The position numbers and the translations under genes were made by a program. The notes beneath the pieces were generated by a model. The model searched no databases and was not told the DNA's origin. It saw nothing but the letters and a program-made list of their open reading frames with translations. A stretch of DNA of 64,000 nucleotides from a bacterium (GTDB lineage: Bacteria > Patescibacteriota > Minisyncoccia > UBA6257 > GWB1-50-10): positions 5,371 through 69,370 of the forward strand of contig JAKAIX010000002.1 in the NCBI GenBank assembly GCA_021814165.1, read 5' to 3'. Each line of letters begins with the position of its first letter. Position 1 is the first letter of the stretch. Below are positions 28,967-46,171 of this stretch, piece by piece.

Positions 28967-28969
28967 TGT

Positions 28970-29064
28970 AATTACCAATTTTTCAATTTCCAATGATCAA
29001 TTAATTTTAAAATCGTTCAATTGAATTATTCATTGAAAATTGGAAATTGGTCATTGAAAATTTA
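28970..29064. repeat. intergenic inverted heptad-array element, copy A
   Basis: Left arm ttttcaatttccaatgatcaatt; AT-rich spacer; right arm cattgaaaattggaaattggtcattgaaaat; fills the whole stop-to-start gap. Confidence 0.8.
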
Positions 29065-30420
29065 TATCTCTTTCTTTTGCTTTTGTTCTCTGACTTCGAT
29101 AAACAGATAGGTGGCAAACCCAAGGAACAAAAATACGTTCAGATAGATCGGCAGCACGTCAAAAAGCGCGACTCCCTGCCCCAGATATCCCATGGGAATT
29201 GCGAGGAGGAGCGCAACGAAGAGATAACCATACGGATGAAGATGCGCGACGATGCTCCGCCGATGCTTCACCAGCTGCGAGAAAAACACCACAAAGATTC
29301 CCAGAAAGCTCAGGAGCCCCAAAATGCCCGTCTCCGCGAGATAATCAAAATACACGCTGTGCGCTCTATCAAACCACGTCTCGGAATGCTGGTCCGGAAC
29401 GAAGTGCCGCGTGTCGAGATATTTGTCAAAAACGACGCCGAAGTTTTCCGGCCCCCATCCCAAAAGCGGGCGTTCTTCCCAGCCCTTTATCGCCGACCCC
29501 CACGTCCAAAGACGGGTCTGCGCGGTTTTATCCGAGGTCGATACGTCAAGGAGACGGCTTGAGGATTCGCAGAAAGGGACGAGCGGAATACTCTCGTGAC
29601 GGAACGTGAAAGCGAGCGCCGCGAATACGATGCAGATCCCGGCGAGCGCAACCGAAATTTTCTTCCCTTTCCCTTGGGGAAGCGCAAACGCGAGATAAAG
29701 GAGCGCCGCGATAATACCGAGGCCGAACCCCAAGAGCGCGCCGCGCGTTTGAGAAAGAAGGAAAAATAACAAAAGGACGACAAGAAGCGCGGCGAAGAAC
29801 ACGTTTCTTTTCCCGTTCGATTTTTTTGAAAACCACAGCCACGACGCGTAAAACATCATGAACATAAGGTAGGGCGCAAGGTACGCCGGATTGCCGAACG
29901 ATCCGGCAATCCGGTCGCAAAATCCCGCGGGACCGATGAACGAGTTGATTCCGAGCGACGCGGCAATCCCGTAAAGAATCACCAACCCCGATGCGGCGAG
30001 CGAGAGCGTAAAAACCCATTTCCATTCCGCTCTGCTGCGAAACAGAAGCAACAAGAGCAGGAAGAAAACGTAGAAATGGAGCATCTGAAGCCCCCCGTCA
30101 CCGCGCTCGAAGTTCGACCAGAATGCCGCACCCGAGTCATAGGCGAAAAGCGACGCAAGAAGGAATACCAGCACGAAAGCGGAGACCGCAATAAACAGCG
30201 GGTGGCGGAATATCTGTTTTGCGCGCACCTTGAGCGTCTCCCACTCTCCCTTTGAAAAAATAACTCCCAGAAGGAATGAAATAAGCGCGAGATCGACGAT
30301 ACCGCGGAAGAACACGTACTTCCCCACCACAAAGGGGAAGAGCGTCGAGTTGGTAACGAGCGCAACACAGAATACGGAGATATAGAGAAGAATGCGAGAG
30401 AGTTTGAAGTAGTTAAACAT
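29062..30420 (-). CDS. Wzy_C / O-antigen-ligase-family polytopic membrane protein (PglL-like O-oligosaccharyltransferase candidate)
   Basis: 452 aa, about 10 to 12 TM helices, typical O-antigen ligase domain architecture. Confidence 0.55.
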   Translation of the reverse strand: MFNYFKLSRILLYISVFCVALVTNSTLFPFVVGKYVFFRGIVDLALISFLLGVIFSKGEWETLKVRAKQIFRHPLFIAVSAFVLVFLLASLFAYDSGAAFWSNFERGDGGLQMLHFYVFFLLLLLLFRSRAEWKWVFTLSLAASGLVILYGIAASLGINSFIGPAGFCDRIAGSFGNPAYLAPYLMFMMFYASWLWFSKKSNGKRNVFFAALLVVLLLFFLLSQTRGALLGFGLGIIAALLYLAFALPQGKGKKISVALAGICIVFAALAFTFRHESIPLVPFCESSSRLLDVSTSDKTAQTRLWTWGSAIKGWEERPLLGWGPENFGVVFDKYLDTRHFVPDQHSETWFDRAHSVYFDYLAETGILGLLSFLGIFVVFFSQLVKHRRSIVAHLHPYGYLFVALLLAIPMGYLGQGVALFDVLPIYLNVFLFLGFATYLFIEVREQKQKKEI

Positions 30421-30423
30421 AAC

Positions 30424-30532
30424 AGTGAATTATCAATTTTCAATTTCCAATGATCAATTGATTTTAAAATTATTTAATTGAATCATTTATCGAAAATTGG
30501 AAATTGGCCATTGAAAATTTATACTCCTTTCC
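30424..30532. repeat. intergenic inverted heptad-array element, copy B
   Basis: caattttcaatttccaatgatcaattg ... cgaaaattggaaattggccattgaaaat; between a stop (30541) and a start (30420). Confidence 0.8.
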
Positions 30533-30540
30533 ATTATACC

Positions 30541-33051
30541 CTACTTCACGGGCGTTATCTCTATCTTCGGCGTTCCCAAACCCGAAGAAGACGGAGCGGG
30601 GAGTTTGATTCCAAGTCCGTTGAATACCGGTTCGAGTTGCGACCAGATCGGGACTGTCCTGAAATCGATTTTTGTCGAGAGTCTTTCGAACTCGACCTTC
30701 GCCTCGGGATACTTCCCCCAGAGATAGTACGCAACCGCGATTTTCAAATTGATTTCGTTCTCCTGTAAAACGCTGGGCCTCATCTTCAACGCCCACGCAT
30801 AGTAACGGATTGCCGACTCATAGTCCTGTTTCTCATCCCCCATGATATCCCCGAGAGTCGTCGCTTCCGCTATGGTGCGCGGCTTACGATTGAGTTCCAA
30901 CGCTTTCCCTATTTCCCTGTCTCCCGTCGGAACGTCATGGAGCTGGTACGCAATGATTCCCAGATAGAAGTGTGGGTCTCCCGCCGACGGGTTCAAGTCA
31001 ACGGCAACCTTAAGCGCGTCGTAGGCGCTTTTCAAATCGCCTTCGAGAACCTTGGTCTTTCCGATTATATAGTACACCTGCTGGCGGTTCGGACTCAGCT
31101 CGAGAGCCTTTTTCTCCAACGCCTCCGCGTCTTTCAGGTAGCCCGCATCGAATTCATAAAACGTGTTTTTAAAGTCCGCGAGCGTGGCATAAAAAAGATA
31201 ATTCCGAGGATGATGATCAATCACTTTTTGCAGCTCCCCCTCAACGCGTTTCTGCAGGTTTGCGACATCGGGGTATTCGACCTGGCTCTCATACGCTCCT
31301 TTCACCACGTTTGCGAACGTAAGCCGGATATCGTCACGGTACGGGGTTCCCGCTGCAAGCGCCTCGTTCAGCGCCGAAACCGATTCCGCAGGAAGTTTGT
31401 TGAGATAATAATTGGGGCCCCAGTACTCACGGCCGGCGGCATACACCATGGGCCAGTTGAGAAAGAAAATCGGGATAAGCGAAACGACGAGAGCGGGGTA
31501 GGCGAACGGAACACGGGATGACGACGAACGCTCGCCGCCATGGGGAGGTCCGGCCTCCTCACGATCGGAGGCCGGGCCTCCTAATATTGCGTTCGGCGAT
31601 CCCTTATAGCGAACATCTATATAGGCTAAGACGAGAAAAAACATAAGATAGGTGCCGATCGTATCGAAGATGACGAGGTTTTGGATAAAATACGCGGCGA
31701 GCATGCCGAAGAATATGATTTTCGGGATACTCCCCTCCCTCGATCTTTTCAGTTCGTAGAGAAGAAGAGCCCATATTCCGAGATACGCAAGAAGTCCCAC
31801 TATGCCGCTTGTTATTGCGTACTCGATAAGCACGTTGTGCGGCTTGTCCCAATACGTCTCGCCGAAATTATTGGAAAGCAGTGCCGGATCATAATGTCTC
31901 TGGAATGCGAGGTTGAAATTTTCCCACCCGAATCCGAATACCGGATGTACAGAGAACGATTGCGCAGCGCTTCGCCACGCGATTATTCTGTTTTCAAATT
32001 CGCTCCGCACCGTCGTGAAGCTTTGGATACGATCAAATCCTGGTACCTGCATCCAAAATGAAGCGCTCCGCGTAAAATAAAAGACGCCGCCGAATGCAAT
32101 CACTATTATAAGAATCCAAAGCCAGACATTTTTAAAAATGAGAAAACTCTGCCTCCCGCCGGAAAAACGTGAAGGATCGGCCTCCAAGCGCGAGGAGGCC
32201 GAGCCTCCTGATTTTGCGTTTGTGCGCTGATAGCGGATAGCGAGAAGAAAAATAATAATGAAGAGACCGACTATAAGACCTCCTATATCTCCTCTTGTCT
32301 CGGTTTTAAAAATAGCAAACGCATCAACGAGAGCGATTATGAGGGCAAGCCACGGCATGACGCGGGCGACACCACGGAGGCCCGGCCTCCGCGAGTAGGA
32401 GGCCGGGCCTCCCAATTCCGCGGAACTCCTAGTTTCATACCAAACATATATCCCCAGGAAGACGTGAAAAAGGAGATAACCGGCGAGGAACGTGGGGTTA
32501 CCGAACGAAGATCCCGGGCGCGGATCATCCTGTCGCAGGAAAAATTGTCCGATATCGGGAAGGAAGGTAAGAAGCGCGCCAAGCGCGGAGAACAAACTCG
32601 CCACCAAGCTCGCAAACCAGACATTCTTCCATTTGAGCTCATCTCCGAGGGAAGAGAGAGCGACGAAGAAGAGTGTAAAAATCCAGAGTGCAACAATGCC
32701 GATGGTACGCACCTCTTGCGACCATAAACTCATCATGAGATCCTCCCCAAAAAACGCGGAGATAGTGAGTACGAGCATAAAGACGACAACACCGATAGTG
32801 AGGGGGGTGAAACGAGGACTAAAACGGCGACGGTCAAAGCGAGGAGACTCGGCTTCCTTACTGAGGCCGAGTCTCCTGCCGAGGACGAGCGCGACCCAGA
32901 GGAAGATAATGATTCCCGCGAGCGACTGGAAAATAGCGCTCTTTACGACGATGAAAGGATTCATCGTCCACTTCCAGAAAAAGAGGGGGACAAGTATCAC
33001 CATCGCGTAGAGGCAGCCGCGGATAATCTTCAAAACGGAGTTTTCGGACAT
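30541..33051 (-). CDS. Wzy_C/O-antigen-ligase-like polytopic membrane domain fused to C-terminal TPR repeats
   Basis: 836 aa. The N-terminal ~480 aa are multi-TM; the C-terminal ~300 aa are TPR (ALELSPNRQQVYYIIGKT..., LKMRPSVLQENE...). Carries four in-frame GC-rich palindromic inserts. Confidence 0.6.
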   Translation of the reverse strand: MSENSVLKIIRGCLYAMVILVPLFFWKWTMNPFIVVKSAIFQSLAGIIIFLWVALVLGRRLGLSKEAESPRFDRRRFSPRFTPLTIGVVVFMLVLTISAFFGEDLMMSLWSQEVRTIGIVALWIFTLFFVALSSLGDELKWKNVWFASLVASLFSALGALLTFLPDIGQFFLRQDDPRPGSSFGNPTFLAGYLLFHVFLGIYVWYETRSSAELGGPASYSRRPGLRGVARVMPWLALIIALVDAFAIFKTETRGDIGGLIVGLFIIIFLLAIRYQRTNAKSGGSASSRLEADPSRFSGGRQSFLIFKNVWLWILIIVIAFGGVFYFTRSASFWMQVPGFDRIQSFTTVRSEFENRIIAWRSAAQSFSVHPVFGFGWENFNLAFQRHYDPALLSNNFGETYWDKPHNVLIEYAITSGIVGLLAYLGIWALLLYELKRSREGSIPKIIFFGMLAAYFIQNLVIFDTIGTYLMFFLVLAYIDVRYKGSPNAILGGPASDREEAGPPHGGERSSSSRVPFAYPALVVSLIPIFFLNWPMVYAAGREYWGPNYYLNKLPAESVSALNEALAAGTPYRDDIRLTFANVVKGAYESQVEYPDVANLQKRVEGELQKVIDHHPRNYLFYATLADFKNTFYEFDAGYLKDAEALEKKALELSPNRQQVYYIIGKTKVLEGDLKSAYDALKVAVDLNPSAGDPHFYLGIIAYQLHDVPTGDREIGKALELNRKPRTIAEATTLGDIMGDEKQDYESAIRYYAWALKMRPSVLQENEINLKIAVAYYLWGKYPEAKVEFERLSTKIDFRTVPIWSQLEPVFNGLGIKLPAPSSSGLGTPKIEITPVK
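31544..31581. repeat. in-frame GC-rich palindrome doublet, insert 1
   Basis: ggaggtccggcctcc-N8-ggaggccgggcctcc inside the CDS; encodes GGPASDREEAGPP. Confidence 0.8.
32172..32208. repeat. in-frame GC-rich palindrome doublet, insert 2 (first half degenerate)
   Basis: ggatcggcctcc-N8-ggaggccgagcctcc, followed by a tgattttgcg flank similar to insert 1. Confidence 0.7.
32376..32412. repeat. in-frame GC-rich palindrome doublet, insert 3
   Basis: ggaggcccggcctcc-N7-ggaggccgggcctcc; encodes GGPASYSRRPGLR. Confidence 0.8.
32843..32877. repeat. in-frame palindrome, insert 4 (variant)
   Basis: ggagactcggc-N13-gccgagtctcc. Confidence 0.6.
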
Positions 33052-33120
33052 AGGAGTAGTTTACAACAAAAAATCTTGATTTCAAATTTCAATATTAGGA
33101 GGAGGAGTGTAATAGGAGGA

Positions 33121-33150
33121 CAAAAAAACAACCCGCCGGAAAGGCGGGTT
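33121..33150 (-). terminator. rho-independent terminator of the surface-protein gene
   Basis: cccgcc-ggaaa-ggcggg stem-loop followed on the minus strand by TTGTTTTTTTG. Confidence 0.8.
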
Positions 33151-33174
33151 GTTTCGTACCAACGAATTGCTCCC

Positions 33175-36100
33175 CTAGTTGGTGTAGGTGACGTGTGCGA
33201 GGTTGAGCGGGACGCTGACGTCGCTTGAAAGATTCAAGCCGTTCGCCGTCGAGCCGCTAACTGCGCCATCGCCCCAGTTGACATCCGATGCAGCATTCAT
33301 GGTCACGTCGAGTGACTGACCAAGGTTCGCCGAGACATAGAAGTTCGACGAATCAACCTTGAGCGCGATACCCTTCGTGGAACCCGACGAAATCGGGGTT
33401 CCCGTAAAGGCAAAGCTTACGCTACAAGAGTTGCCGGTCGGGCTGCAGGACTGCGGGTTCGTCGCTCCATCATAAGCCGATCCGGTTGAAGGATCGATAA
33501 GGCTCACGTTGAAGGAACTTGCCGTCGAGAGCGCGCCGCCGACGAATCGGAGTGACAAGGTGTTTACCTTGATTTCCTGACCCGAAGCATCCGCGCTAAG
33601 TTTCACGCACGCGACATAGTCGGTCGTGGTTCTCGAGCGAGCAGTCGTGGAACCGCCAGTGTAGCTGCCGCACGTGCTGTCGGAGCCCAAAGAGGTTCCG
33701 GCAAGCGAGAGCTTGCTTCTCAACGTTGTAAGCGTCGCGAAGGACGGCGTGCCCGTTACCGTCACCGAAGTGTTGGAGGACTTGCCGTACGCAACTACGC
33801 TCGAGGTCGCCGAAATCGCGATCGAGGTGGTCGCATTTTCAATGCTGCCACCGCCGACCACGAAGGGCGCCGCGTTACCGCGGAGTTCCACCGAGAGCGT
33901 TCCGGCCTGCGGCACCAACATAGAGGCGCTGTTGCCGAAGTTGAAGTCAGCTACGAAGGACGGAGCCGCGCTCGTCATCGAGATCGGACCCGCGCCCGCA
34001 ATAGCCGCTCCGCTCGCGTCATAGAGCTGCAGGTTCGTGAATGCAGCGCCAACCGAGGATCCGGTGTTCAAGTTAAACTTGAGCTCCTGGATTCTGATCG
34101 GTTCGATACCCGCCGTGTCAGTCAAGAGGATCTTCGCCAAGCTTACGCCCGTCGAACCCAAGACAACCTGGCGCGAAGCGCCGGAGTTGTTGTTTGAGAT
34201 CGTGAGCGAAGGACCTGTCGATACCGTGATGTTCTGACCGGTCGGAGTACCGCTGCAGGAGACGGACGTATTCGTCGTCTGACCCGTTCCCGTGCAGGAT
34301 ACGAACGAAGTGAGCGTTCCCATGTCGCCGGTGTTCGTGGTCAAGATATCCGCATAGATATCAACAACCGCCGTACCTCCCACGGGGACCGTGAAGGTGC
34401 CCGCGAAAGTATGATTGCCGGACGAGATGGTCGAGATCGCCGAACCGATGACCGTCGAACCAACCATCGCCTTGAGGTTCTGGAAGTTCGAGGACGAAGC
34501 GTTCGTCGAAACCGTGAAGTTCGAGATGTTCACGCCTTCAGCCGAGGATGCGGTAAAGACGTACGAACCGACTTTCGTCGCCGGTGCGCCTTTCGCATAC
34601 GTCTGGCTCGCAAACGCGCCGTTCTTCGTCACCGTAAGAGGTGTCGTCGAAAGCGTGAGTGCGGAACCGGTCGCCGAACCGCTCGAGCTCGTCTGGCTTG
34701 AAGTCAAGCCCTGCAAGTTCGAGGAGTTGCCCGGCAGGCTGGCAGTCACCGTCGTGAAGTCAGCACCCGTCTGAACATCGCCTCTCACGGAAATCGTGCG
34801 AGTCGTGTTTGCGGGGATGACATATACGATCGGCGAGCCGCTCGTACCGAAGTGACACGTTACCGTGCCTCCCGCTACGAAGGAACAACCGCCGCTGTTC
34901 GCCGAACTGGTATTGCCAGTCGTCGAAATCGTGGTGCCGATCTGGTTGCCCTGATCGTCAACCAAGCGGAGGTTTTGCAGGTCGGAATCGAACGCAGTGG
35001 ACGAATTCGTCCAGTTGTGTGTTCCACCCGTCTTCACTAAGTTCACATCCAAGAACTTCACTTTTACGGCCTCACCCGCCGCGTATACGTCAAATTTCGC
35101 GAGGGTTGTTCCCGCACCACCCAAGGCAATATTGCCGGTCGGGGTGTTCGTGTTGACGGAGGTCGTGATCTGTCCCTGGTTGATCGTTACCTGTACGCCG
35201 GAACCGCCGTTTACGGTCACCGAGACAGGAACGTTGTACTGCGTGTCTACCGCGTAGATGTCATACGAGTTCAGAACTTCGAACTGGAAGTTGAAGCTCG
35301 GGGAACCCGTTACGTCCGCGTAGACCTGGATGTTGTTCGATCCGGTCTGAAGTTTTACCGGAGCCGACGAGAAGTCGAAGTATCCCGAGCCGTCCGCAGT
35401 AACAGAAGCCAAGGTGGCTCCCGCCTGCTTTCCGTTCACGAGCATCTTCACGTTCTTCAGGTCGGTCTTCAGCGCGGAACCAACCACCTTGAAGTTGATC
35501 GAGGTGAGGTTTACCGGGCTGTTGCTCACCGTCGCGGTCCACTGCGATACGAGGACACCGTTCGTGCCCGCATACACCGTGGTACCCACGGACGATGACG
35601 CAAGCGTCACGGACGCGATCGAAGGATTCGAGACGCTCGTCACCGTGAAAACGTTGCCGTTCATCGGGAAGGTCGCCGAAGCCGTGACCGCCGCGCCGGT
35701 CGCATCAGTCGCACTTACATCGCTTGCTCCGGTCATTGCAAACGCAATCGTGTTACCGGCGGAGAGATTCACCGCAGGATCGATCGAAAGCGTAAGGTTT
35801 ACGGTCTGACCGGCCGCAATGTTCAAAGCGATTCCGGAGAATTCAATCACGCCGCTGTTCACGGACGTGTATTGATACAATACCTTGCCGTTTTGGACGA
35901 GGTATGCACCGGAGATCGCCGAATCAGCTACTACGCCTGTCTTGTGGAATTTGAGATTCGTGACAGTAACGCCGCTCGCGGTGCCAGCCGTCAAATTGAA
36001 GGCCATTACCGGAACGCGAGCCGCCGCTGAATTGGTGCTCGAAATTAACGCACCCGCCGCAGGATTATTGGAAGCAAGGCTTACCGCCAATCCGGATGCA

Positions 36101-36627
36101 GGAGCGGGAACCGACGGGGTGGAAGGAGTGCCCGGCGTCGACGGAGTCGACGGGGTTCCTACACTCACCGCGTTTACGCTTTCTCTGGTCTTAGGACCAA
36201 AGTACCCGACCGCGGGGGAGATTCCCTTCGCTGCCTGGTATTTTGCGAGAGCCGCCTTGGTCGCGGGGCCGAAGTATTCGGTTTCATTCCCCTTTGATCC
36301 GGCGCCGCTCGTCGCAACGGCGTAGCCGCTGCTATTCAAGAACTGCTGCAACGCCTTCACGTCCGTCCCCTTGCTTCCAAGGGTGAGGTCCTTAGAAAAA
36401 GTGTAAGACGAGCCGGAAGAGCCCGCAGTTCCCAATTGAGCCTGCAAAGCACTGATCTGCGCCAAAAGCTGGGCGATCTGCGCCTGCAGTTCCGCTGTAG
36501 TCGCCGCGGAGGCCGTGATCACTGAACCGGCAAACCATGCAACGGTCGCGACCGAAAGGCCTACTGCAACGACTTTTCGACTTAAATTACTCATTGTGTT
36601 GATAATTTCTGAAGAACACCGATCCAT
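33175..36627 (-). CDS. giant secreted/cell-surface protein: N-terminal signal/TM anchor, coiled-coil (AQLLAQISALQAQL), peptidoglycan-binding (PG_binding_1-like) domain, then about 950 aa of Ser/Thr/Gly/Ala/Val-rich beta-repeat (Ig-like) region
   Basis: 1150 aa. LGSKGTDVKALQQFLNSSGYAVA...GPATKAALAKYQAAKGI matches PG-binding domain signatures. The rest is low-complexity T/S/G-rich, consistent with an S-layer or pilus-like and O-glycosylation substrate. Confidence 0.6.
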   Translation of the reverse strand: MDRCSSEIINTMSNLSRKVVAVGLSVATVAWFAGSVITASAATTAELQAQIAQLLAQISALQAQLGTAGSSGSSYTFSKDLTLGSKGTDVKALQQFLNSSGYAVATSGAGSKGNETEYFGPATKAALAKYQAAKGISPAVGYFGPKTRESVNAVSVGTPSTPSTPGTPSTPSVPAPASGLAVSLASNNPAAGALISSTNSAAARVPVMAFNLTAGTASGVTVTNLKFHKTGVVADSAISGAYLVQNGKVLYQYTSVNSGVIEFSGIALNIAAGQTVNLTLSIDPAVNLSAGNTIAFAMTGASDVSATDATGAAVTASATFPMNGNVFTVTSVSNPSIASVTLASSSVGTTVYAGTNGVLVSQWTATVSNSPVNLTSINFKVVGSALKTDLKNVKMLVNGKQAGATLASVTADGSGYFDFSSAPVKLQTGSNNIQVYADVTGSPSFNFQFEVLNSYDIYAVDTQYNVPVSVTVNGGSGVQVTINQGQITTSVNTNTPTGNIALGGAGTTLAKFDVYAAGEAVKVKFLDVNLVKTGGTHNWTNSSTAFDSDLQNLRLVDDQGNQIGTTISTTGNTSSANSGGCSFVAGGTVTCHFGTSGSPIVYVIPANTTRTISVRGDVQTGADFTTVTASLPGNSSNLQGLTSSQTSSSGSATGSALTLSTTPLTVTKNGAFASQTYAKGAPATKVGSYVFTASSAEGVNISNFTVSTNASSSNFQNLKAMVGSTVIGSAISTISSGNHTFAGTFTVPVGGTAVVDIYADILTTNTGDMGTLTSFVSCTGTGQTTNTSVSCSGTPTGQNITVSTGPSLTISNNNSGASRQVVLGSTGVSLAKILLTDTAGIEPIRIQELKFNLNTGSSVGAAFTNLQLYDASGAAIAGAGPISMTSAAPSFVADFNFGNSASMLVPQAGTLSVELRGNAAPFVVGGGSIENATTSIAISATSSVVAYGKSSNTSVTVTGTPSFATLTTLRSKLSLAGTSLGSDSTCGSYTGGSTTARSRTTTDYVACVKLSADASGQEIKVNTLSLRFVGGALSTASSFNVSLIDPSTGSAYDGATNPQSCSPTGNSCSVSFAFTGTPISSGSTKGIALKVDSSNFYVSANLGQSLDVTMNAASDVNWGDGAVSGSTANGLNLSSDVSVPLNLAHVTYTN

Positions 36628-37136
36628 ACGAAAATAAGCTTGCTCGTCGTTATTTGCCGTATGAATGATTGTTCTTGTATATATTCGATATTTGTTGTTC
36701 GTTCACAGCAAAGTGTTTCTTTGCCGTGCCGTCGACCTTTAAGGGTTTTCAGGAACGCCGTAGTCATTCCCGGCTTGTCGACCCCCGTCTTTGTGAGGAG
36801 AAGGCGGCGGAAGCCAAGGAAGCGGCGTATTAGTATCAAAAAAACAGAAAATCTCGCTTTGGAGCGAGACCTATTATAACCCGAGTACGCAGTATACTCC
36901 TTCGGCCGAGACACCCATCACCGAATCGAGCATATTCGGAAACGGATGACTCAACCAAAGGATTGCGCCTTTCATGGGTTAGTCGGGCCTCACTCCCTTC
37001 TAACTCTTCTTATAGTATACCAAATTACAGGAATTTTCCGAGCGCTGCAAGCGCCTCTTTCTCCACAGCTATTTCAGTACATTATCTATAACGAAAAAGG
37101 GGTGTTTTTTGTTACGAGAAGGCCTGCAGGAAGGTT

Positions 37137-37223
37137 GTATTTCCACACTACATTCCCCTTACTCGGGCGCTCCGGGCCGCTTGGCCAAGTCTTACCCTCG
37201 TTCGGAGAATGTAGTGTGGAAAT
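37137..37223. other. long perfect hairpin (17-bp stem) enclosing a 42-nt core identical to a second copy at 46066-46112 (inverted orientation)
   Basis: Stem atttccacactacattc / gaatgtagtgtggaaat; core actcgggcgctccgggccgcttggccaagtcttaccctcgttcg. Confidence 0.8.
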
Positions 37224-37269
37224 CTAAAAGTGTGCATTCTCTCCAAAAAAACGAGGAGAGAAATAAAAA

Positions 37270-38058
37270 TCAAGGTAAAAGCCACGGAGCGGTGGCGAAA
37301 AGGATACTCGCAAAGACCGCGAAAAAGGTAAGCTCCTTGAGAATAAAAGAGAACGAAAGGGTGCCCTCAAAATGCATAAGAAGGGCGTCCCGAAGGAGGA
37401 TAAGCACCACTGCGAGAAACGCGCCGGCGTTCAGGAACCCGAGGGGGAGAAAGAGCGCGAGTGCCGCTATTTCGGAGGCGAGGAGGCCCAGGGAGACGGC
37501 CGTGAGGCGGAGTGAACGCGAGATCGCGACGCCCAGGAACGAGAACGCTTCCTTTATAAGGAGGGTGGTTACCAAAAACACCGCAAGGAGCCAGAAAAAA
37601 AGCGGGAAAAACGCCTCGCGCCCCAGTGAAGGGGCAAAGTAGAAAAACTCGACGAAGGTAAAGAAAAGAATCACCGAATGGACAAGCCGATACCAAAGCG
37701 GCCGTTCCGCAATCACATAATTCAGGTTGCCGAGCACGAGATACAAAAGCGCGCCGAATCCGAGAAATGCCAGCACCTCCATTATCGTCGCGATGAAGAA
37801 AGAAGGGAGGGAGAACGTGATGGCGTAGAGGCCGAGGAGTGCCGCTATCCCGAGAACCCAAAAGGAGACGCGGATTACCTCGCGGCCGGAGCGCTCGGAA
37901 CGGTATATCCACGCGAGAACCGCGAAATACACGAGGGAGCCGAAAAAGGAAAACCCGAGGAGATAAGCAAATCCGAGCGCTGCCACTGCTCCGAGAGACT
38001 TATACAGTAACCTCCACTTGGTCTCCTTTGGTAAGGATGACAGTAGCTTTTGTACCAT
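37270..38058 (-). CDS. hypothetical polytopic membrane protein
   Basis: 262 aa, about 8 TM helices, no recognisable motifs. The N-terminal 59 nt overlap the clpB 3' end, so the true start may be downstream or non-ATG. Confidence 0.45.
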
Positions 38059-40660
38059 CTCGGAGCGTGCCGCGGACTATTTTGTCCGCGAGTGCGTCGA
38101 CAATCACTTTTTGGATAAGCCGCTTCACGGGGCGGGCGCCGTAATCGGGATCAAAGCCGTGTTCTATAATGTAGCGTTTTACCTCCGGTTTGATCTGGAG
38201 CGTAATCCCCTTCTCGAGAAGGCGGGCTTTTACTTCGCCAAGCTGAATATCCACGATTTTCTCGATGTCTTCGGGAGAAAGCGCATTGAAGATGATTATT
38301 TCGTCCAGACGATTCAAGAATTCCGGCTTGAAGGTTTCGCGGAGCGAATCCATGACCCGTTCCCCGAACTGTTCTTCCTTCTCCCGCAACGCCTCCCCGC
38401 CGCGGCCAACCTTGAAACCCAAGGAGGACATCTCGCGGAAATATTCGCTTCCCACGTTCGAGGTAAGAATGATGACGGCGTTCTTGAAGTTTGCAATCTT
38501 TCCTTTCGAGTCGGTAAGCCGTCCGTTGTCCAATACCTGAAGCAGAATGTTAAATACCTCGGGATGCGCTTTCTCGATTTCATCGAAGAGGATTAAGCTG
38601 TACGGTCGATGGCGGATCATGTCGGTAAGCCGCCCCCCTTCGTCATACCCTACGTAACCGGGCGGCGAGCCGATGAGACGGGACACCGAGTGCCGTTCCA
38701 TATATTCCGACATATCGATTCTGATTAAGGATTTCTCATCATTGAACATGAATTCCGCGAGCGCGCGGGCGAGTTCCGTTTTTCCGACGCCGGTCGGCCC
38801 CAGAAACATAAACGACCCCGCCGGCTTGTCTTCGTCGGCAAGTCCGGCGCGCGAGCGACGGAGCGCGCGGGCGACGGAATCGATCGCCTCTTCCTGTCCC
38901 ACGACGCGACGGCGGAGTTCCTCCTCGATTCTCGCGAGTTTTTTCATCTCGGATTCGAGCATCCGGGAAACGGGTATCCCCGTCCAGCGGGAAACGACGG
39001 CGGCGATGTCTTCTTCATCCACCACTTCTTTTATGAAGAATTCGCGTTTGTGCGTTTTTGTACGCGCACCCGCGCTCGTTTTCACGCGCAGCTGTTTTTC
39101 GAGATCGCCGTACCGCTTTTCGATTTTCGGATACTCCCCGTAACGGATCTCCGCGACCCGATCGAAGTTCCCTTCCCGTTCCGCAATCTCCGCTTCGCGC
39201 TTCAAATCCTCCATCGCCTTCCTGATGGTATGAAGCGAACCCACCCCCGTTTTTTCTCCCTCCCAGAGGGCGGTGAGTCTCGCGTTCTCGGCTTTCAACT
39301 TTTTCAAATCCCTGACCACCTCCTTGAGGCGCGCGGTTTTCTTGGAACTCTGCTCCTTGTGGAGCGCGGACTTTTCTATTTCGAGACGGGTGATTTCCCT
39401 CCTGATTTTCTCGATCCCCTCGGGAACGCTGTCGGATTCGAGACGCCGCGCCGCGGCCGCCTCGTCAATCAAATCCACCGCCTTATCGGGAAGAAATCTG
39501 TCGGTGATATAACGCGCACCCAAATTCACCGCCGCGACGATCGCCTCGTCGGTGATCTTCAAGCCGTGGTGGGTTTCATACTTCTCCTTGAGCCCGCGGA
39601 GAATCGCGATCGAATCGTCGACCGAGGGTTCTTCGACAAGGATCGGCTGGAATCTGCGTTCGAGTGCGGCGTCTTTCTCGATATACTTCTGGTATTCCTT
39701 CAAAGTGGTCGCTCCGATTGCGTGAAGCTCTCCCCGCGCGAGCGCTGGTTTCAAGAGGTTTGACGCATCGATTGCCCCTTCCGCGGCACCCGCACCCACA
39801 ATCATGTGGATCTCATCGATAAAAAGGATGATGCGCCCTTCCGACTCGCGGACTTCCTTCATAAACGCCTTGAATCTGTCTTCAAACTCTCCTCGGAACT
39901 TCGTGCCCGCAATCAAGGACCCCAGATCGAGCATGATAATTTCTTTCCGTTTTAAGGACTCGGGCACGTCGCCGGAGACGATGCGCTGCGCCAATCCCTC
40001 CACAATCGAGGTTTTTCCGACCCCCGGCTCACCAATCAGCACGGGGTTGTTTTTCGTGCGCCGCGAGAGAATTTGCATGAGACGACGGAGCTCGTCCTCG
40101 CGTCCGATCACCGGGTCGAGTTTTCCGCCGCGCGCTTTTTCCGTAATGTTCACCGCGTATTTTTCGAGTACCTGGAATTTCGCTTCCGGCGTTTCGTCCG
40201 TCACCCGCGTCGAACCGCGAAGCCCTGCAAGCGTTCGCATTAATATGTCCTTGCGCGCGCCGAAATGAGAAAGCACGTCCTGCGCCACGGACGGAATATC
40301 GGAGAGTGAGACCAAGAGATGTTCGCACGAGATAAACTCGTCTTTCTGCTTCATCGCAATTTCTCCCGCCTTATCCAGGATGCGCATCAATTCTTGGGAA
40401 AGATAAAGCTGCCCCACCGCGCCTTGGGAAGAAAAAATTTTCGGGAGCTTGTCGAGCGTCGTTTTCACTTCGCGTTCGAGTTCCGCGAGATTCACGTTTG
40501 CGCGAAGAAGAAGCGGCCTTACGAGCGTCTGCTCGTCGTCGAGGAGCGCGGCTAAAAGATGCAGCGCCTTGAGCTCGCCGTGATTGTAGCGCGCAACCGC
40601 CTCCTGCGCTCCCTGGAGCGCTTCCTGCGCCTTGATGGTAAAACGTTGAAAGTTGGGCAT
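38000..40660 (-). CDS. clpB: ATP-dependent chaperone ClpB
   Basis: 886 aa; Clp N-domain, two AAA+ modules ([16 protein letters not shown] Walker A), and a long middle coiled-coil domain characteristic of ClpB. Confidence 0.95.
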
Positions 40661-40663
40661 AGA

Positions 40664-40760
40664 ACGAGAATTTTCAATTTCCGATTATCAATTTTCAGGA
40701 CTTGTTTTGAAAATTGGTTTATTGGAAATTCACTGAAAATTGGAAATTGATAATTGAAAA
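40664..40760. repeat. intergenic inverted heptad-array element, copy C
   Basis: ttttcaatttccgattatcaatttt ... cactgaaaattggaaattgataattgaaaat; abuts the clpB start codon (12 nt upstream). Confidence 0.8.
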
Positions 40761-40848
40761 TCAATTACTCATTACACTACGTTACATTATACGTCATCCT
40801 ACTCTTTTTTTGTAAGATTAGCAAGCAAGCAACCCGAGTGCTAATTTT

Positions 40849-42105
40849 CTACTCCCCCTTCGGCCGGGCTTCAAGCGTAACGGATAGGTCGAGCGTTTTG
40901 TCTCCTCTCTGCACCTTAAGCGTAATCGTGTCGCCAACGTTGTAACGCCCTACGAGATCGATAAGCGAGTGGTCCTGATCCACTCCCACCCCGTTCACCT
41001 CGAGCACGATGTCTTCCGCCTTGAGTCCCGCCTTCGCCGCCGGAGAATCGGGAATAACGGCCGGTCCGTTCCCCGATCCGCGGAGCAATGCGCCATGATC
41101 GGCGGCAAGCTTCTGCGAACTTGCCATATCGGAGGTGATTGCCATATAACGGACGCCCAGATACGGAGTTTTGATATCTCCCGTCGCTTTCACCGATCGT
41201 ATATCGCGTTTCGCCTGATTCACGGGTATCGCGAAACCGATGTTCTGGGCGCCGGAAGCGATCGCGGTATTAATACCGATAACTTCTCCCTGAAGATTCA
41301 GGAGCGGGCCGCCGGAATTTCCCGGATTGATTGCCGCATCGGTTTGAATAACTCCCTGGATTGTTTCGGAACCGATCGTATTCCCGGATGCGGTAATCGT
41401 TCTTTGAAGTCCCGAAATAACGCCCACCGAAACCGTGTTTCGGAATTCTCCCAGCGAATTTCCGATCGCGATTGCGGTCTGCCCGAGTTCCAGCGCATCG
41501 GAATCCCCGAGCTGTACTACGGGCAGATGTTCGGCGTCGATCTTCAAAACCGCGAGATCCTGCACCGGATCGCGGGCGAGTACTTTTGCGGGATATTTCT
41601 TCCCGCTATTCGTGAGCACCGTATAATCGGCGCTTGTGTCGCTCACGACGTGTTTGTTCGTGAGTATGAGCCCGTTCTCCGAGATGATGAACCCCGATCC
41701 GCCCCCGACCTCCTGATATTTCGTACCCTTTTCGCATGGTTGCGAAAATTGAGGTCCTTGTATGAAGAATCCTCTAAACTCCGGGGGAAGGTTTTCAAAG
41801 GGATCATAGGGGCAGTTTTCAATAACCGGCAGGTCCTTACTGATAACAATGGATACGACGGAAGGCGAAGCTTTTTTCACCGCGCTCACTACCGCCCGTT
41901 CGTAATCGACGGTAGGAGCATAGAGCGGCGGCGTGGTAGTTGAGACGCTGGCGGAAGGCTGCACGGTTTCCGTCGAACTTCCCTTGAGAAAGTTCCAGAT
42001 GTCGCCAAGGATGCTCGCGCGCGCGGAGCCCGCCGAGGCGAGCGATCCCGCGACTCCTCCCAAAAAACCGGCAATAAGAACTGCTACGAGAATCTTCTTC
42101 TGCAT
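40849..42105 (-). CDS. HtrA/DegP-family serine protease with PDZ domain
   Basis: TNKHVV (His), GNSGGPLLN (Ser) and a C-terminal PDZ domain; N-terminal TM anchor. Confidence 0.85.
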   Translation of the reverse strand: MQKKILVAVLIAGFLGGVAGSLASAGSARASILGDIWNFLKGSSTETVQPSASVSTTTPPLYAPTVDYERAVVSAVKKASPSVVSIVISKDLPVIENCPYDPFENLPPEFRGFFIQGPQFSQPCEKGTKYQEVGGGSGFIISENGLILTNKHVVSDTSADYTVLTNSGKKYPAKVLARDPVQDLAVLKIDAEHLPVVQLGDSDALELGQTAIAIGNSLGEFRNTVSVGVISGLQRTITASGNTIGSETIQGVIQTDAAINPGNSGGPLLNLQGEVIGINTAIASGAQNIGFAIPVNQAKRDIRSVKATGDIKTPYLGVRYMAITSDMASSQKLAADHGALLRGSGNGPAVIPDSPAAKAGLKAEDIVLEVNGVGVDQDHSLIDLVGRYNVGDTITLKVQRGDKTLDLSVTLEARPKGE

Positions 42106-42208
42106 ACTACGCTGGAATTATGCGAAACACTTGATGATAGCAGGCGCGCGAACGGGCGATAATGAAACCGCCCTTCGCTCACCTTCATGATGTACTACTC
42201 TTTTCTCC

Positions 42209-43003
42209 CTATTTTATTTCGTATCGCAACGTCACAGTCACATTCACTTCCTGGGAACCCGGCTCGATCGCGGGAGCGGGCGCTGCTGCTTCGATTCCTC
42301 CCAAACCGCTCACCGTCGCTTTCATACTCCTCATATTATCGTAGTAGAGCGGACCGTACCCCGACTCATCAACCGAAAGAAGGCGTCCTATCGAAAAGCC
42401 CGCCGCGTCGGCGATCCCTTCCGCTTGCACCTTTGCTTTTTCTATCGCGTCGGCGCGCGCATCATTTTTCGCTTTTTCGGGATCATCGATCGTAAACTGG
42501 AGCTGGGAAACGGTGTTTGCGCCGTTCTTCACTACGCCCGAGAGAATGTCACCGATTTTCGAGAAATCCCGGATCTTCACGTCGACATTCTGGGTTACGG
42601 TATACCCTACGATCTCCGCCGGCGGACAGGGCTGGGCGCTCCCGCTTACATACTGCCCGCAATTGTAATACTGGTAGCGCGGGGTGATGGAATAGCCGCT
42701 CGTCTTCACGTCTTTTGCATTAACGCCGCTTGATTTCACGAAATCGATCGCGTTATTCATCTTCTCCGTGTTGGTCTTCTGAAGCGATCCGACGTCCTTT
42801 CCTCCCTCCGTCGTCACGCTGAAATTAAACTCGGCAACGTCGGGAACCGTGACCACTTTTCCCTGCGCAGTCACCGTGAAACTCCGGAACGACGAGGGCT
42901 CGACCGAAGCCGAGTAGGTATTCACGTAACTTAATGCCGCATAGGCACCGACCAAAAGCGCAATCGTCAGCGCAACGTACATATACGATTTCGATTTATC
43001 CAT
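42209..43003 (-). CDS. SIMPL-domain (DUF541) protein, periplasmic/secreted
   Basis: N-terminal TM/signal; two-lobed SIMPL-like pattern; 264 aa. Confidence 0.6.
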   Translation of the reverse strand: MDKSKSYMYVALTIALLVGAYAALSYVNTYSASVEPSSFRSFTVTAQGKVVTVPDVAEFNFSVTTEGGKDVGSLQKTNTEKMNNAIDFVKSSGVNAKDVKTSGYSITPRYQYYNCGQYVSGSAQPCPPAEIVGYTVTQNVDVKIRDFSKIGDILSGVVKNGANTVSQLQFTIDDPEKAKNDARADAIEKAKVQAEGIADAAGFSIGRLLSVDESGYGPLYYDNMRSMKATVSGLGGIEAAAPAPAIEPGSQEVNVTVTLRYEIK

Positions 43004-43046
43004 ATTTTCTATTCCTATATGTTATTTTTCTTCGACCGAAGAATTA

Positions 43047-43146
43047 TAACATTTCGAATTTTCAATTTCCAATGGTCAATATTCAATCAATTTTTTAATT
43101 TGAGAATTTCAAAATTCACTGAAAATTGGAAATTGATAATCGAAAA
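43047..43146. repeat. intergenic inverted heptad-array element, copy D
   Basis: aattttcaatttccaatggtcaatatt ... cactgaaaattggaaattgataatcgaaaat; ends at the stop of the cysteine desulfurase gene. Confidence 0.8.
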
Positions 43147-44670
43147 TTACTCTCCGAGCAATTTTTTTATTCTCCTCACCGCCTCCCTTATTTCCTGTCT
43201 CGTTGTCGGCACACCGAAGCTAAACCGTATGCTCCCGCGGATGCGTTCCGACGGAAGTCCCAACGCCTCAAGCACGTGGGAGGGAACGAACGAGCGAGCG
43301 CTGCACGCCGAACCCGAGGATGCGGCGATGCCCGCCATGTCCATCTTCACCAAGAGATCTCCGGCAAACTCCGTCGGGAAATAGGCGTTTATGATGTGCG
43401 GTGCCATAATTCCTGATTCCTTATTCCCGATTCTTAATTCATTATCACCGTTCATCGATGCCTGCGGATATATTTTTTTCAACTCTCTCCAGAAGTAGTT
43501 CCTGACCTCCGTCACTTGCTTTGCGTGTTTCGCGCGTCCCTTCTCCGCGAGCATGGCCGCATTCCCGAATCCTACAATCGCGGGAACATTTTCCGTTCCC
43601 GAACGGAACCCAAATTCCTGGCCGCCCCCCGTCACGAATGGAATTAGGAATTTTGAATTATGAATTATGGCTCCGTCACGTTTCACCCCTAATTCCTTAT
43701 TCCTAATTCCTGATTCCTGTCCCTTTATTCCTGATTCTTGATTCTTAACGAAGAGCGCGCCCGCTCCCTTCGGGCCGTAGATCTTCTGGGAGGATAACGT
43801 CATGAGGTCAACGCCGAGCCGTCCCACGTCGCACTTGAAATATTCGAACGCCTGGGCGGCATCCACATGCAGGAGCGGATATGCCTCTCCTGCAAATCCA
43901 AAATCCAAATGACCAATGTAAAATGGACGAATCGTCGGCTGATGTGCTTTTAACATTGTGCTTTCAGCTATTGATTTGGCATTCAGCGTTTGAAATTTGG
44001 CATTTCTAAAATTTCTGATGACTTCAGAAATTTTAGAAATTGGCTGTACGCTCCCTATCTCGTTATTCACGTACATAACGGACACGAGCACTGTCCGTTC
44101 ATCAAGCATCGTTTCGAGTTTTTTCAAATCAACAATTCCCCTCTTATCGACGGGAAGTACCGCAACTTCCACGCCGTCCTTCTCGAGGGCGTACGCGGTA
44201 TCCAGCACCGACTCGTGTTCAATCGCCGAGACGATAACCTTTGGACGAAAGCCACGAGTTATACTTCCCTTCCGTCGCCCCCCTAATTCCTTATTCCCTG
44301 CCTGCCTGCGCAGGCAGGCCTGCGCAGGCAGGTTTATTCCTGACTCCCGTCCTCTTATTCCTGATTCCCATTCCCTGGTTCCGAAAACAACACCGCGGAG
44401 TGCGAGGTTGTTTGCCTCGGTTGCGCCCGAGGTGAATATTACTTCACGAAATTCCGCATGGATCGCTTTCGCGATCGTCTCCCGTGCGGCATCGATCGCC
44501 GCAATCGCCTCCTGTCCGAATGAATGCAATGATCCGGGGTTCCCGAATGTATCCGAGAAGTACGGTTCCATCACGCGCTTTACTTCCCGCAGAACGGGCG
44601 TGGAGGCGGCGTAATCTAAATAAATCTTCAGAGATTGTTTCTTCATTTTTTCGTTACCCTTAGACACCAA
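43147..44670 (-). CDS. cysteine desulfurase (class V aminotransferase, NifS/IscS-like) carrying four in-frame insertions
   Basis: DYAASTP, SGATEANN, SSQKIYGPKG (PLP Lys) and SSGSACS (catalytic Cys loop) are all conserved. At 507 aa it is about 110 aa longer than typical, because of palindromic DNA inserts. Confidence 0.8.
   Translation of the reverse strand: MVSKGNEKMKKQSLKIYLDYAASTPVLREVKRVMEPYFSDTFGNPGSLHSFGQEAIAAIDAARETIAKAIHAEFREVIFTSGATEANNLALRGVVFGTREWESGIRGRESGINLPAQACLRRQAGNKELGGRRKGSITRGFRPKVIVSAIEHESVLDTAYALEKDGVEVAVLPVDKRGIVDLKKLETMLDERTVLVSVMYVNNEIGSVQPISKISEVIRNFRNAKFQTLNAKSIAESTMLKAHQPTIRPFYIGHLDFGFAGEAYPLLHVDAAQAFEYFKCDVGRLGVDLMTLSSQKIYGPKGAGALFVKNQESGIKGQESGIRNKELGVKRDGAIIHNSKFLIPFVTGGGQEFGFRSGTENVPAIVGFGNAAMLAEKGRAKHAKQVTEVRNYFWRELKKIYPQASMNGDNELRIGNKESGIMAPHIINAYFPTEFAGDLLVKMDMAGIAASSGSACSARSFVPSHVLEALGLPSERIRGSIRFSFGVPTTRQEIREAVRRIKKLLGE
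44297..44332. repeat. perfect GC palindrome inside the cysteine desulfurase CDS
   Basis: cctgcctgcctgcgcaggcaggcctgcgcaggcagg; translated in frame as LPAQACLRRQAG. Confidence 0.8.
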
Positions 44671-44679
44671 ACAAAGAAG

Positions 44680-44835
44680 ATGATTGCCCTCTATAAAATC
44701 CTAAACTCAAAATCCTAAATCCTAAACAATTACCAAAAAATAAAAACCCGGATATCCGAAACACGGGTTTTCGAAATTCGAATTTCTGTCATTGAAATTT
44801 GTTTAGAGTTTAGCGCTTAGGGTTTAGGATTTTCC
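44680..44835. terminator. large palindromic intergenic structure: CCTAAA/TTTAGGG-type heptad arms flanking a rho-independent terminator hairpin (44742-44770)
   Basis: aaaacccg-gatatccgaaaca-cgggtttt flanked by aaatcctaaactcaaaatcctaaatcctaaac and gtttagagtttagcgcttagggtttaggatttt. Confidence 0.55.
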
Positions 44836-44844
44836 CATCCCCTT

Positions 44845-45324
44845 TTACTCTTCTTTCTTCGTCTCCTTGTCAATAAATCTGTTAATGCTCGGCAAGCGGG
44901 AGATCCAAAGCGTTACGCTCATGCCGAGCGCGGCAATTACCGCAAACTCCAGGAGCCCTATCCCGCACAACACCCCGATCGCGGCGACGAACCAAATCGT
45001 GGCCGCGGTGGTGAGTCCGCGCACGTGTACCCCCTGTTTCACGATAATCCCGGCTCCCAAGAATCCCACTCCCACGATCACATTCGCGATAACCGCAAAG
45101 AAACCGCTGTTCCTCGCGATGATATCGGTGAGGTGCGTCGGAGAAAACGCGACGAGATACGGGAGGGACATTCCCACGATCGAAAAGATTGCAGCACCCG
45201 CGGCGACCATCATGTCGGTTCGGAGTCCCGCTTCCTTCCCCGCGAACTGCCGCTCGACACCCATAATGAGCCCGAGGAGTGCGGCGAGCGCGAGACGGAT
45301 AAGCATTTGTTCGAGAGTTAACAT
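44845..45324 (-). CDS. MgtC/SapB-family membrane protein
   Basis: Motif GLIMGVERQFAGKEAGLRT is the MgtC signature. The first ATG is at 45324 (MLTLEQ...); the track ORF start at 45351 is a TTG within element E. Confidence 0.7.
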   Translation of the reverse strand: MLTLEQMLIRLALAALLGLIMGVERQFAGKEAGLRTDMMVAAGAAIFSIVGMSLPYLVAFSPTHLTDIIARNSGFFAVIANVIVGVGFLGAGIIVKQGVHVRGLTTAATIWFVAAIGVLCGIGLLEFAVIAALGMSVTLWISRLPSINRFIDKETKKEE

Positions 45325-45334
45325 GATTTCATTA

Positions 45335-45431
45335 TAATGCTCAATTTCCAATGATCAATTTTCAATCAATTTTTTAATTCGAAAATTTTAAAATCGACTG
45401 AAAATCGGAAATTGATAATTGAAAATTCTCG
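45335..45431. repeat. intergenic inverted heptad-array element, copy E
   Basis: ctcaatttccaatgatcaattttcaat ... gactgaaaatcggaaattgataattgaaaat; contains a palindromic ATTATAAT box 9 nt upstream of the mgtC-like ATG. Confidence 0.8.
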
Positions 45432-46007: not shown

Positions 46008-46047
46008 GATCCTTTTAATTATAACATTCCGCCCTCACTATAACTCT

Positions 46048-46130
46048 CTCTGTGCCGCACCTTCCCGAACGAGGGTAAGACTTGGCCAAGCGGCCCGGAG
46101 CGCCCGAGTGAAGGAAGGTGCGGCACAGAG
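46048..46130. other. long perfect hairpin (18-bp stem) enclosing the same 42-nt core as 37137-37223, in opposite orientation
   Basis: Stem ctctgtgccgcaccttcc / ggaaggtgcggcacagag; the core is the reverse complement of the copy-1 core, identical over 42 nt. Confidence 0.8.
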
Positions 46131-46171
46131 ACCTACCATCTCCCACTCCTTTCTGTTATTTTGAAAGAGAC

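Follow-up and report, generated by a model that had tools for sequence, protein, structure and literature searches.

The 64-kb stretch of contig JAKAIX010000002.1 analysed here (the window) carries, in gaps between co-directional minus-strand genes, five AT-rich copies (c1 to c5, ~95 nt each) of a palindromic element built of 7-bp repeats, or heptads. We estimate a probability of about 0.6 that these copies form one family of small non-coding palindromic repeats, similar to MITEs (miniature transposable elements with inverted repeats) and REP sequences, which is gained and lost among close relatives within the candidate phyla radiation (CPR) and is no stress-regulon operator. The element is copied as a whole unit and is gained, lost or replaced at orthologous gaps among relatives. 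Several families of heptad arrays exist in this lineage; besides the five-copy one they include families that lie in frame in protein-coding genes. A first-pass annotation of the window had offered two explanations, the operator/promoter module of a stress regulon or a MITE-like family in intergenic gaps, and had proposed beforehand that related genomes be compared. The presence or absence of the element at orthologous gaps supports the second explanation and is incompatible with a conserved operator. This support carries caveats, in that neither a target-site duplication nor a transposase was seen, and the arms of the element are promoter-like; a promoter role is possible.

Copies and architecture of the element

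Direct reading, repeat detection and a five-way alignment (mean column identity 74%) confirmed the five intergenic copies that the first-pass annotation had located. Copy c1 (28967..29064, minus strand) occupies the entire 95-nt gap from the Wzy_C gene (29062-30420) to the TPR gene (28358-28966), and c2 (30421..30535, minus strand) lies in the 120-nt gap from the Wzy_C+TPR gene (30541-33051) to the Wzy_C gene. Copy c3 (40661..40765, minus strand) is situated between the −10 box of clpB and the clpB ATG (40660), within an HtrA-ClpB gap of 188 nt. Copy c4 (43044..43146, minus strand) starts directly 3′ of the stop codon of the Aminotran_5 (AT5) gene, in an AT5-SIMPL gap of 143 nt, and its other end is at a conserved TATAAT (43048 to 43043), while c5 (45325..45431, minus strand) fills the whole 107-nt gap between Cob_adeno_trans (CobAT) and MgtC. 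The genes downstream of c1 to c5 encode TPR, Wzy_C, ClpB, SIMPL and MgtC proteins, as originally given, and those upstream Wzy_C, Wzy_C+TPR, HtrA, Aminotran_5 and Cob_adeno_trans. The copies had been described as abutting the start codon, and four of the five do end 7–12 nt from the ATG, but c4 lies ~50 nt upstream, with the conserved TATAAT in between. The GC contents reported earlier (~33% for the copies, ~54% for coding sequence) were not reproduced, the element-bearing gaps having 21–30% GC and the window ~51%. Nor was a suggested degenerate copy at 33060-33110 borne out, since what occupies that gap is the GC-rich hairpin of an intrinsic terminator together with a promoter-like site, TTGAAA-16-TAAACT.

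In each copy an AT-rich spacer is flanked by two arms in inverted orientation, each made of three or four imperfect heptads. The 7-bp period is specific (13 regions at lag 7, compared to 0–2 at lags 5, 6, 8 and 9), the inverted pairs are made up of GAAAATT, GGAAATT, GATAATT and GGTCATT units, and the arms amount to ATTG repeated every 7 bp, as CAATnnn in the left arm and ATTGnnn in the right. By repeat detection the arms measure 28–45 nt and are 71–79% complementary within a copy, which agrees with the inverted 7-bp arrays first described and provides the terminal inverted repeats of a MITE. The complementarity is imperfect because two inner heptads stand in swapped order, the proximal arm reading GAYCA/GATAA-GGAAA-GAAAA and the distal arm, on the other strand, GAAAA-GGAAA-GGTCA/GATAA-GAAAA. 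The two arms are 33–42 nt apart, and besides the heptads the copies have non-heptad spacer and flanking bases (GAGTA..AATTTTC) in common. They are 95–115 nt long and non-coding, in keeping with the size of a MITE; the sole open reading frame in the element (9–15 codons, MANFQFSIN) is found in c1 and c2 only, is absent from c3 to c5, and was rejected as a gene, being simply the heptads translated.

A 15-mer core, GAAAATTGGAAATTG, occurs 12 times in the window at up to two mismatches against an expectation of 0.54, and 11 of these occurrences are inside the five copies. Repeat detection placed the copies in families D1–D3, with 88% identity between c1 and c2 over 95 nt, and the whole-copy alignment scores (152 for c1–c2, 141 for c4–c5 and 75–101 for the other pairs) show that neighbours are most alike. 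All copies had been assigned the same polarity, which holds only for the constant order of heptads in the arms; the centre of the element is itself palindromic, however, and whole-element alignments score alike in either orientation.

Gain and loss among syntenic relatives

The element was compared between this genome (L120) and four relatives with the same gene order (L121 to L124), in which ClpB is 91%, 90%, 84% and 78% identical, respectively, to that of this genome. Orthologous gaps proved to be filled in some genomes and empty in others, an insertion polymorphism of the kind that characterizes MITEs. The CobAT-MgtC gap, which is 107 nt long and holds c5 here, measures only 7 nt in L122 and 17 nt in L124, and contains unrelated heptad palindromes in L121 (AGTATNN) and L123 (TTTTAAA). 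The Wzy-Wzy gap is 120 nt with c2 here versus 16 nt in L121, where the empty gap reads ggTATAATagaaagca followed at once by ATG, and c2 therefore sits between a −10 box and the ATG. The AT5-SIMPL gap, 143 nt with c4 here, is 36 nt and element-free in L122 and holds a diverged orthologous copy in L121. Four of the five genomes have a heptad palindrome in the HtrA-ClpB gap, between the −10 box and the ATG, but its heptads vary: GAAAATT-type here and in L121 (a diverged orthologue of c3), AAATCCT in L122, TTTTAAT in L123 and none in L124. In 22.6 kb of L124 there are no lag-7 arrays, compared to 13 in L121 and 15 in L123, and the gaps of L124 are short or have ordinary GC-rich terminators. Orthologous copies in this genome and L121 differ chiefly by reshuffling of heptads. 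By this comparison c3 and c4 are old copies, and c2 and c5 are gains or replacements.

A metagenome scan with a two-arm, family-specific pattern returned one match, on a 1.7-kb contig (L125), and added no copy-number information. Between the Wzy genes of L123 (20362-20778, 22388-22649) and L124 (17455-17835), but not in the window, there are small PDDEXK_3 and 23S_rRNA_IVP genes, and gaps near these inserts hold other short-period arrays, e.g. GCTGATN.

A sixth copy and its genomic setting

A 340-kb contig of the metagenome-assembled genome GCA_027423885.1 matches the window region at 99.99% identity, and extension of the genome by 10 kb past the window end (L128) made ~74 kb of it readable. 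A sixth copy was found in this extension (L128 12597-12850, approximately 64700-64970 in window numbering), directly 3′ of tRNA-Leu(cag), with an RNase J gene 80 nt beyond it and the neighbouring genes on the plus strand. The claim that copies always precede stress or envelope genes is contradicted by this position, and the six copies in ~74 kb give the family the several dispersed members of a MITE. The spacer of the sixth copy is enlarged by four nested GC-rich tetraloop hairpins, e.g. ccgccGAAGgcgg and ctcccTACGggag, which suggest a second class of very small inserted hairpins. Within the window a 50-nt GC-rich sequence, CCGAACGAGGGTAAGACTTGGCCAAGCGGCCCGGAGCGCCCGAGTGAAGG, occurs at 37139-37223 and 46045-46135 in inverted orientation with 96% identity, each copy nested in a longer hairpin; a related sequence is present in the MgtC-AT5 gap of L122, and the repeat has no match in Rfam.

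Among named sources, the nearest homologues of ClpB belong to Minisyncoccia, Paceibacterota, Jorgensenbacteria and the 'Patescibacteria group', and on sequence grounds the source is a Parcubacteria-type CPR bacterium. HIP1 (GCGATCGC) is not enriched in the window (6 sites versus 4.4 expected), which speaks against a cyanobacterial origin. The genome is compact, most gaps being shorter than 25 nt, and heptad arrays are present in 6 of the ~22 gaps of at least 90 nt, all six between 28.9 and 45.4 kb of the window. Many genes possess a TATAAT-like box 6–14 nt before the ATG without a Shine-Dalgarno sequence (e.g. gene starts 46007, 47870, 53803, 45324 (minus) and 23749 (plus)), suggesting that the mRNAs of this CPR lineage may be mostly leaderless or have short leaders.

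Heptad arrays inside genes and in other phyla

A second palindromic heptad element (AAATCCT / AGGATTT, with TTTAGGG-like units; 44691..44838) brackets a GC-rich terminator hairpin (44760-44747) in the MgtC-Aminotran_5 gap, and the AAATCCT family also occupies the clpB leader of L122. The Aminotran_5 gene (43147-44646, minus strand), which is cysteine-desulfurase-like, contains four in-frame arrays of a GGAATNA family (~44290-44393, 43895-43990, 43640-43760 and 43405-43450, minus strand) that encode repeats such as ESGIRNKELG, the third segment being itself palindromic. Alignment of the orthologues, of 408, 461, 478, 499 and 525 aa, showed that they vary at exactly four hypervariable insert sites, and in the 408-aa protein of L124 two of the four inserts are missing and a third is at its shortest. 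In the same genome, TTTTAGT- and ACTTGAT-type heptad arrays lie within the IleRS coding region (1190 aa; L128 18835-19073).

Copies of the five-copy family were seen between genes only in the ~74 kb, the in-frame cases being the GGAATNA arrays of this genome and GAAAATT arrays in other CPR genomes. A degenerate right-arm 27-mer of the GAAAATT type matched at least 119 stretches in a species-representative genome collection, and among the matches listed 53 of 119 are labelled CPR, the others belonging to Bacteroidota, Nitrospirota, Acidobacteriota/Thermoanaerobaculia, Planctomycetota and Gammaproteobacteria. An inverted partner array is located 18–93 nt upstream, the arrangement found in the window, in ~22 of 120 listed matches and downstream in 11, as compared to only 3 in control regions. 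Open frames of at least 150 codons contain 42 of the 119 listed matches, and in ten cases checked with Pfam the arrays were inside domains of the following proteins: P-type ATPase, Mur ligase (two cases), LeuRS (two cases), TIM, FtsJ, Fmt, ribosomal protein L4 and UvrD helicase. Loci with in-frame arrays inside such domains are L004, L010, L016, L022, L018, L115, L046, L103, L044, L061, L042, L079 and L001. The Mur ligase array is at the same site in three genomes, the LeuRS array is likewise found in three, and the peptides encoded by in-frame arrays include ENWKLKIEN, LKIGNCKLKI and NFQFTISNFQ. In L010, L016 and L022 a TGA-to-TGT change keeps an alternative frame open. A phage vector was considered and rejected, as 2.9 million viral contigs yielded only 2 matches to the 27-mer, and a literature search found no paper tying heptamer repeats to CPR and none with ENWKLKIEN or NFQFSI.

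Promoter-like geometry of the arms

The phasing of the heptads has a consequence for promoter recognition. The unit ATTGNNN gives a −35-like TTGNNN, and 23 nt (three heptads) later a GNNNAT that is −10-like when it is GATAAT or GAAAAT, with the 17-nt spacing of sigma-70 promoters. A sigma-70 consensus scan found a sense-strand match in the proximal arm of all five copies. In c5 this is TTGATC-16-TATAAT (45358 to 45331, minus strand), which ends 6 nt before the ATG; in c2 it is TTGATC-17-GATAAT (30457 to 30429, minus strand), ending 8 nt before the ATG, so that both lie at the distance typical of native promoters in this genome; in c4 it is TTGGAA-18-TATAAT (43072 to 43043, minus strand), ~44 nt before the SIMPL ATG; and the proximal arms of c1 and c3 (minus strand) have weaker matches. 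Sigma-70-like sites number 13 in the elements, 10 of them on the sense strand and 3 antisense, where local dinucleotide shuffles of the same elements gave 3.9 ± 2.0; as the copies are related, this comparison overstates independence. In L002, L019 and L084, tRNA genes are directly preceded by similar heptad arrays, an arrangement that fits a transcriptional rather than a translational role. It is plausible, from the position and spacing of these hexamers, that the proximal arm can act as a promoter, or restore one, after insertion. In the Bacteroidales loci L002, L017, L025, L032, L074, L077 and L082 the same heptad array immediately adjoins CAAAGGTA, which on the other strand is the TAnnTTTG −7 box of Bacteroidetes, with the array at about −20 to −50 of the promoter; in L002 the promoter beside the array drives tRNA-Leu(taa).

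Slippage, RNA structure and operator as alternatives

If no mobility were involved, the copies would be heptanucleotide simple-sequence repeats arising in place by slippage, and their similarity would reflect convergence or local gene conversion. Among long simple-sequence repeats, heptanucleotide repeats make up the most frequent class in most prokaryotic genomes, and slippage has been proposed to give rise to them (work summarised in PMC4679880). The greater likeness of nearest neighbours, the heptad reshuffling that mainly separates orthologous copies, the recurrence of the same heptads in unrelated phyla and the lack of a visible target-site duplication are in line with such an origin. We nevertheless consider it unlikely, as the spacer and flanking bases are common to the copies too, the 7–17-nt gaps of the relatives offer no seed for an inverted structure of 100 nt, the inverted arms are left unexplained, and identical 27-mers occur inside conserved domains of many different genes.

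The element might also function as an RNA stem-loop, a ~30-bp AU-rich imperfect helix serving as an RNase III site, as an mRNA stabiliser or insulator, or as a thermometer for clpB. On the sense strand each of c1 to c5 folds better than its shuffled versions, with hairpins of −20 to −26 kcal/mol and z of −2.9 to −4.1 (c1, −24.6 kcal/mol and z −4.1); c2 and c3, being between the −10 box and the ATG, must be transcribed; arm order is constant relative to transcription; and Correia and ERIC elements act in this way (PMC10969869). However, a specific RNA function is not supported, because the antisense strand folds about equally well, with no consistent strand asymmetry, and covariation lends no support, the consensus fold being weak (−8.7 kcal/mol), its covariation term non-supporting and 2 of 24 pairs compensatory. 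Furthermore, the hairpin ends 7–12 nt before the AUG and leaves it uncovered, relatives do without the element, and an intrinsic terminator scan found none at the copies, which have neither a GC-rich stem nor a U-tract. A search of Rfam yielded only tRNAs at the gathering threshold and, at E<=1, spurious plant miRNA-precursor matches to the neighbouring AAATCCT palindrome. We regard a role of the element as functional RNA as improbable.

The control region of clpB bears on the operator proposed in the first-pass annotation. A CIRCE-like inverted repeat, TTAGCACTC-N9-GCTTGCTAA (40818..40844, minus strand), is the sole match in the window to the CIRCE consensus (2 mismatches, 0 expected) and is followed by the TATAAT −10 box of clpB (40786..40791, minus strand), which is upstream of c3; this arrangement is conserved in L120 to L124, the box being kept in all five. 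The CIRCE-like site is likely an HrcA operator, as predicted from its sequence, and is separate from the element, c3 being placed by these signals in the 5′ leader of the CIRCE-controlled clpB transcript. The element itself has no match to the CIRCE/HrcA consensus TTAGCACTC-N9-GAGTGCTAA, and the CtsR box RGTCAAA-NAN-RGTCAAA has no match in any copy at up to 3 mismatches, with 2 matches elsewhere in the window against 5.5 expected. The 15-bp palindromic CodY box, AATTTTCWGAAAATT, gave only 2-mismatch matches, in c3 and c4 (5 in the window, versus 3.95 expected), and the CodY-like half-sites AATTTTC and GAAAATT are 45–60 nt apart in the element. The CtsR, CodY and CIRCE operators and the REP family were all tried as identities of the element and rejected.

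CtsR operators are known to be heptad arrays. So are the operators of omega/ParB of pSM19035 (PMC9499535). Although every copy lies just upstream of a gene with constant arm order and c3 and c4 are kept in L121, an operator at which a heptad-recognising repressor or activator would co-regulate clpB, SIMPL, mgtC, Wzy_C and the TPR gene is highly improbable and is largely refuted by the comparative data: it is not supported because the clpB operator and TATAAT are separate from the element and conserved in five genomes, and in addition the orthologous genes of relatives are without the element or have palindromes of unrelated heptads (L124 has none), the element varies in position relative to the −10 box, being downstream of it in c2 and c3 but on its upstream side in c4 and c5, the sixth copy stands before RNase J, and matches to the CtsR and CodY boxes are not above chance.

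Evidence against a mobile repeat, and a proposed mechanism

Several observations weigh against our proposal of a MITE/REP-like family. Filled and empty sites show no clear target-site duplication, and none that is consistent at c2 or c5; a possible TAA/TATAA repeat at c4 is not separable from chance in AT-rich DNA. The called genes of L120 and L128 include no transposase domain, and neither a transposase nor a RAYT was seen among the called genes of the ~74 kb. Arm order relative to transcription is identical in all six copies, including the sixth among plus-strand genes, suggesting orientation-dependent selection or insertion, although six related copies are weak evidence. The c3 and c4 gaps are 69–72% identical to those of L121, where coding DNA is 70–82% and an element-free gap 55% identical, and this retention may reflect some constraint, low-complexity alignment inflating the identity. 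The recurrence of the 27-mer in many phyla is something that a lineage-specific MITE cannot explain, and the 75 listed intergenic matches elsewhere show only a weak bias towards the DNA just 5′ of start codons (within 15 nt, 8 versus 2). Finally, in c4 and c5 the −10 hexamer of the promoter-like sites falls beyond the conserved portion of the element, and in c1 and c3 it is a poor one.

We propose that the palindromic element would spread as insertional or expanding 'selfish' DNA, for which transposition in trans, local duplication or gene conversion, and slippage that remodels the heptads are candidate routes, and that it would persist where it is tolerated. With less certainty, it might be tolerated, and sometimes perhaps useful, by virtue of the −35-like/−10-like pair supplied by ATTGNNN phasing, the gene-proximal arm replacing or reinforcing the usual short-leader promoters of the genome. 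When read through from upstream, the two arms would form a long AU-rich hairpin in leader or intercistronic RNA. Much more tentatively, the ATTG-phased arrays (GAAAATT/GGAAATT/GATAATT) could represent an undescribed class of invasive simple-sequence element, common throughout CPR and found in other phyla too, which would enter both gaps and conserved genes (where it encodes ENWKLKIEN-type peptides) and be tolerated or favoured as portable, phase-tolerant sigma-70 promoters for leaderless-type genes, since every register of three heptads would recreate a −35/−10 pair; the five-copy element would then be a palindromic derivative copied as a whole unit. This broader idea we hold to be rather doubtful as it stands.

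Relation to known repeats and significance

Heptamer repeat arrays are familiar from the STRR sequences of cyanobacteria. TAACTGA heptamer repeats occur near start codons in Beggiatoaceae, Cyanobacteria and Bacteroidetes and have no known function or transfer mechanism (PMC4679880). Such arrays (TAACTGA, STRR) are the closest structural relatives of the element, as they consist of tandem 7-nt units, are mostly intergenic and often lie a few nt before starts, in genomes that have few Shine-Dalgarno sites; the TAACTGA-type arrays are also scattered over distant phyla, with mixed families per genome and some members inside open reading frames (PMC4679880), as here. The units of the element, however, are other than TAACTGA, CCCCAGT, TTGGTCA and CAACAGT, only the GGTCATT unit of c1 containing an STRR2-like TTGGTCA. 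Moreover, its arrays are short, imperfect and paired in inverted orientation around a spacer, whereas a Beggiatoaceae genome has 169 direct sets and one indirect (PMC4679880), and CPR hosts are not reported for the TAACTGA arrays.

Correia and other MITEs contain sigma-70 promoters and are subject to RNase III cleavage; they are found immediately upstream of genes and have a length of ~100–150 bp and inverted ends (PMC10969869). Correia-type MITEs are the closest functional counterparts of the element. Correia, ERIC and RUP elements are, like it, ~100 nt long and non-coding, with inverted arms, dispersed copies in short gaps just upstream of genes, presence/absence between relatives, sigma-70-like hexamers and a long RNA stem. 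The element differs from them in having no sequence similarity to them, arms that are 7-bp arrays instead of unique terminal inverted repeats and a CPR host, and neither a target-site duplication, TA or other, nor an IHF site or a partner transposase was identified for it.

Rickettsia palindromic elements insert in frame in genes (PMC10969869). They are the closest analogue of the in-frame arrays, being palindromic families of a reduced genome that are both intergenic and in frame in unrelated housekeeping genes, to which they add a conserved peptide; the in-frame units described here are shorter (27–100 nt versus ~150 nt) and built of heptads, and the five-copy family was seen between genes only. 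REP/BIME sequences, which RAYT transposases mobilise, resemble the element in being short imperfect palindromes outside genes that lie where neighbouring genes are co-directional and frequently form inverted pairs. They are GC-rich, 20–40 nt long and marked by a conserved GTAG-like tetranucleotide at the 5′ end, whereas the element has 21–30% GC, is ~95 nt in length (~3× longer) and lacks GTAG at either end. The CtsR and omega-parS operators, too, are made of contiguous 7-bp units, direct or inverted, upstream of genes, including clpB-type genes for CtsR, but the element has no CtsR box match, its arms are 33–42 nt apart, its heptads are not conserved at orthologous sites, and clpB has a CIRCE-like site instead. 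What distinguishes the element from Correia-type MITEs, Rickettsia palindromic elements and the heptamer arrays is that an inverted pair of heptad arrays is copied as a unit, with a different heptad and in a CPR host.

For annotation, these results remove a tempting false regulon and place the control region of clpB at the CIRCE-like site and the −10 box. Cyanobacterial heptamer arrays have been on record for decades and those of Beggiatoaceae and Bacteroidetes since 2015, with no accepted function, and the TTGNNN-17-GNNNAT geometry offers a concrete, testable hypothesis for one, for which the syntenic set L120 to L124 provides a natural series of gains and losses. Streamlined CPR genomes, in which gaps are 5–20 nt, still bear a dynamic load of heptad palindromes, by which DNA close to promoters is remodelled and, probably, even loops in housekeeping proteins. 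The more interesting lead is that the same arrays occur across phyla and in frame in CPR housekeeping genes.

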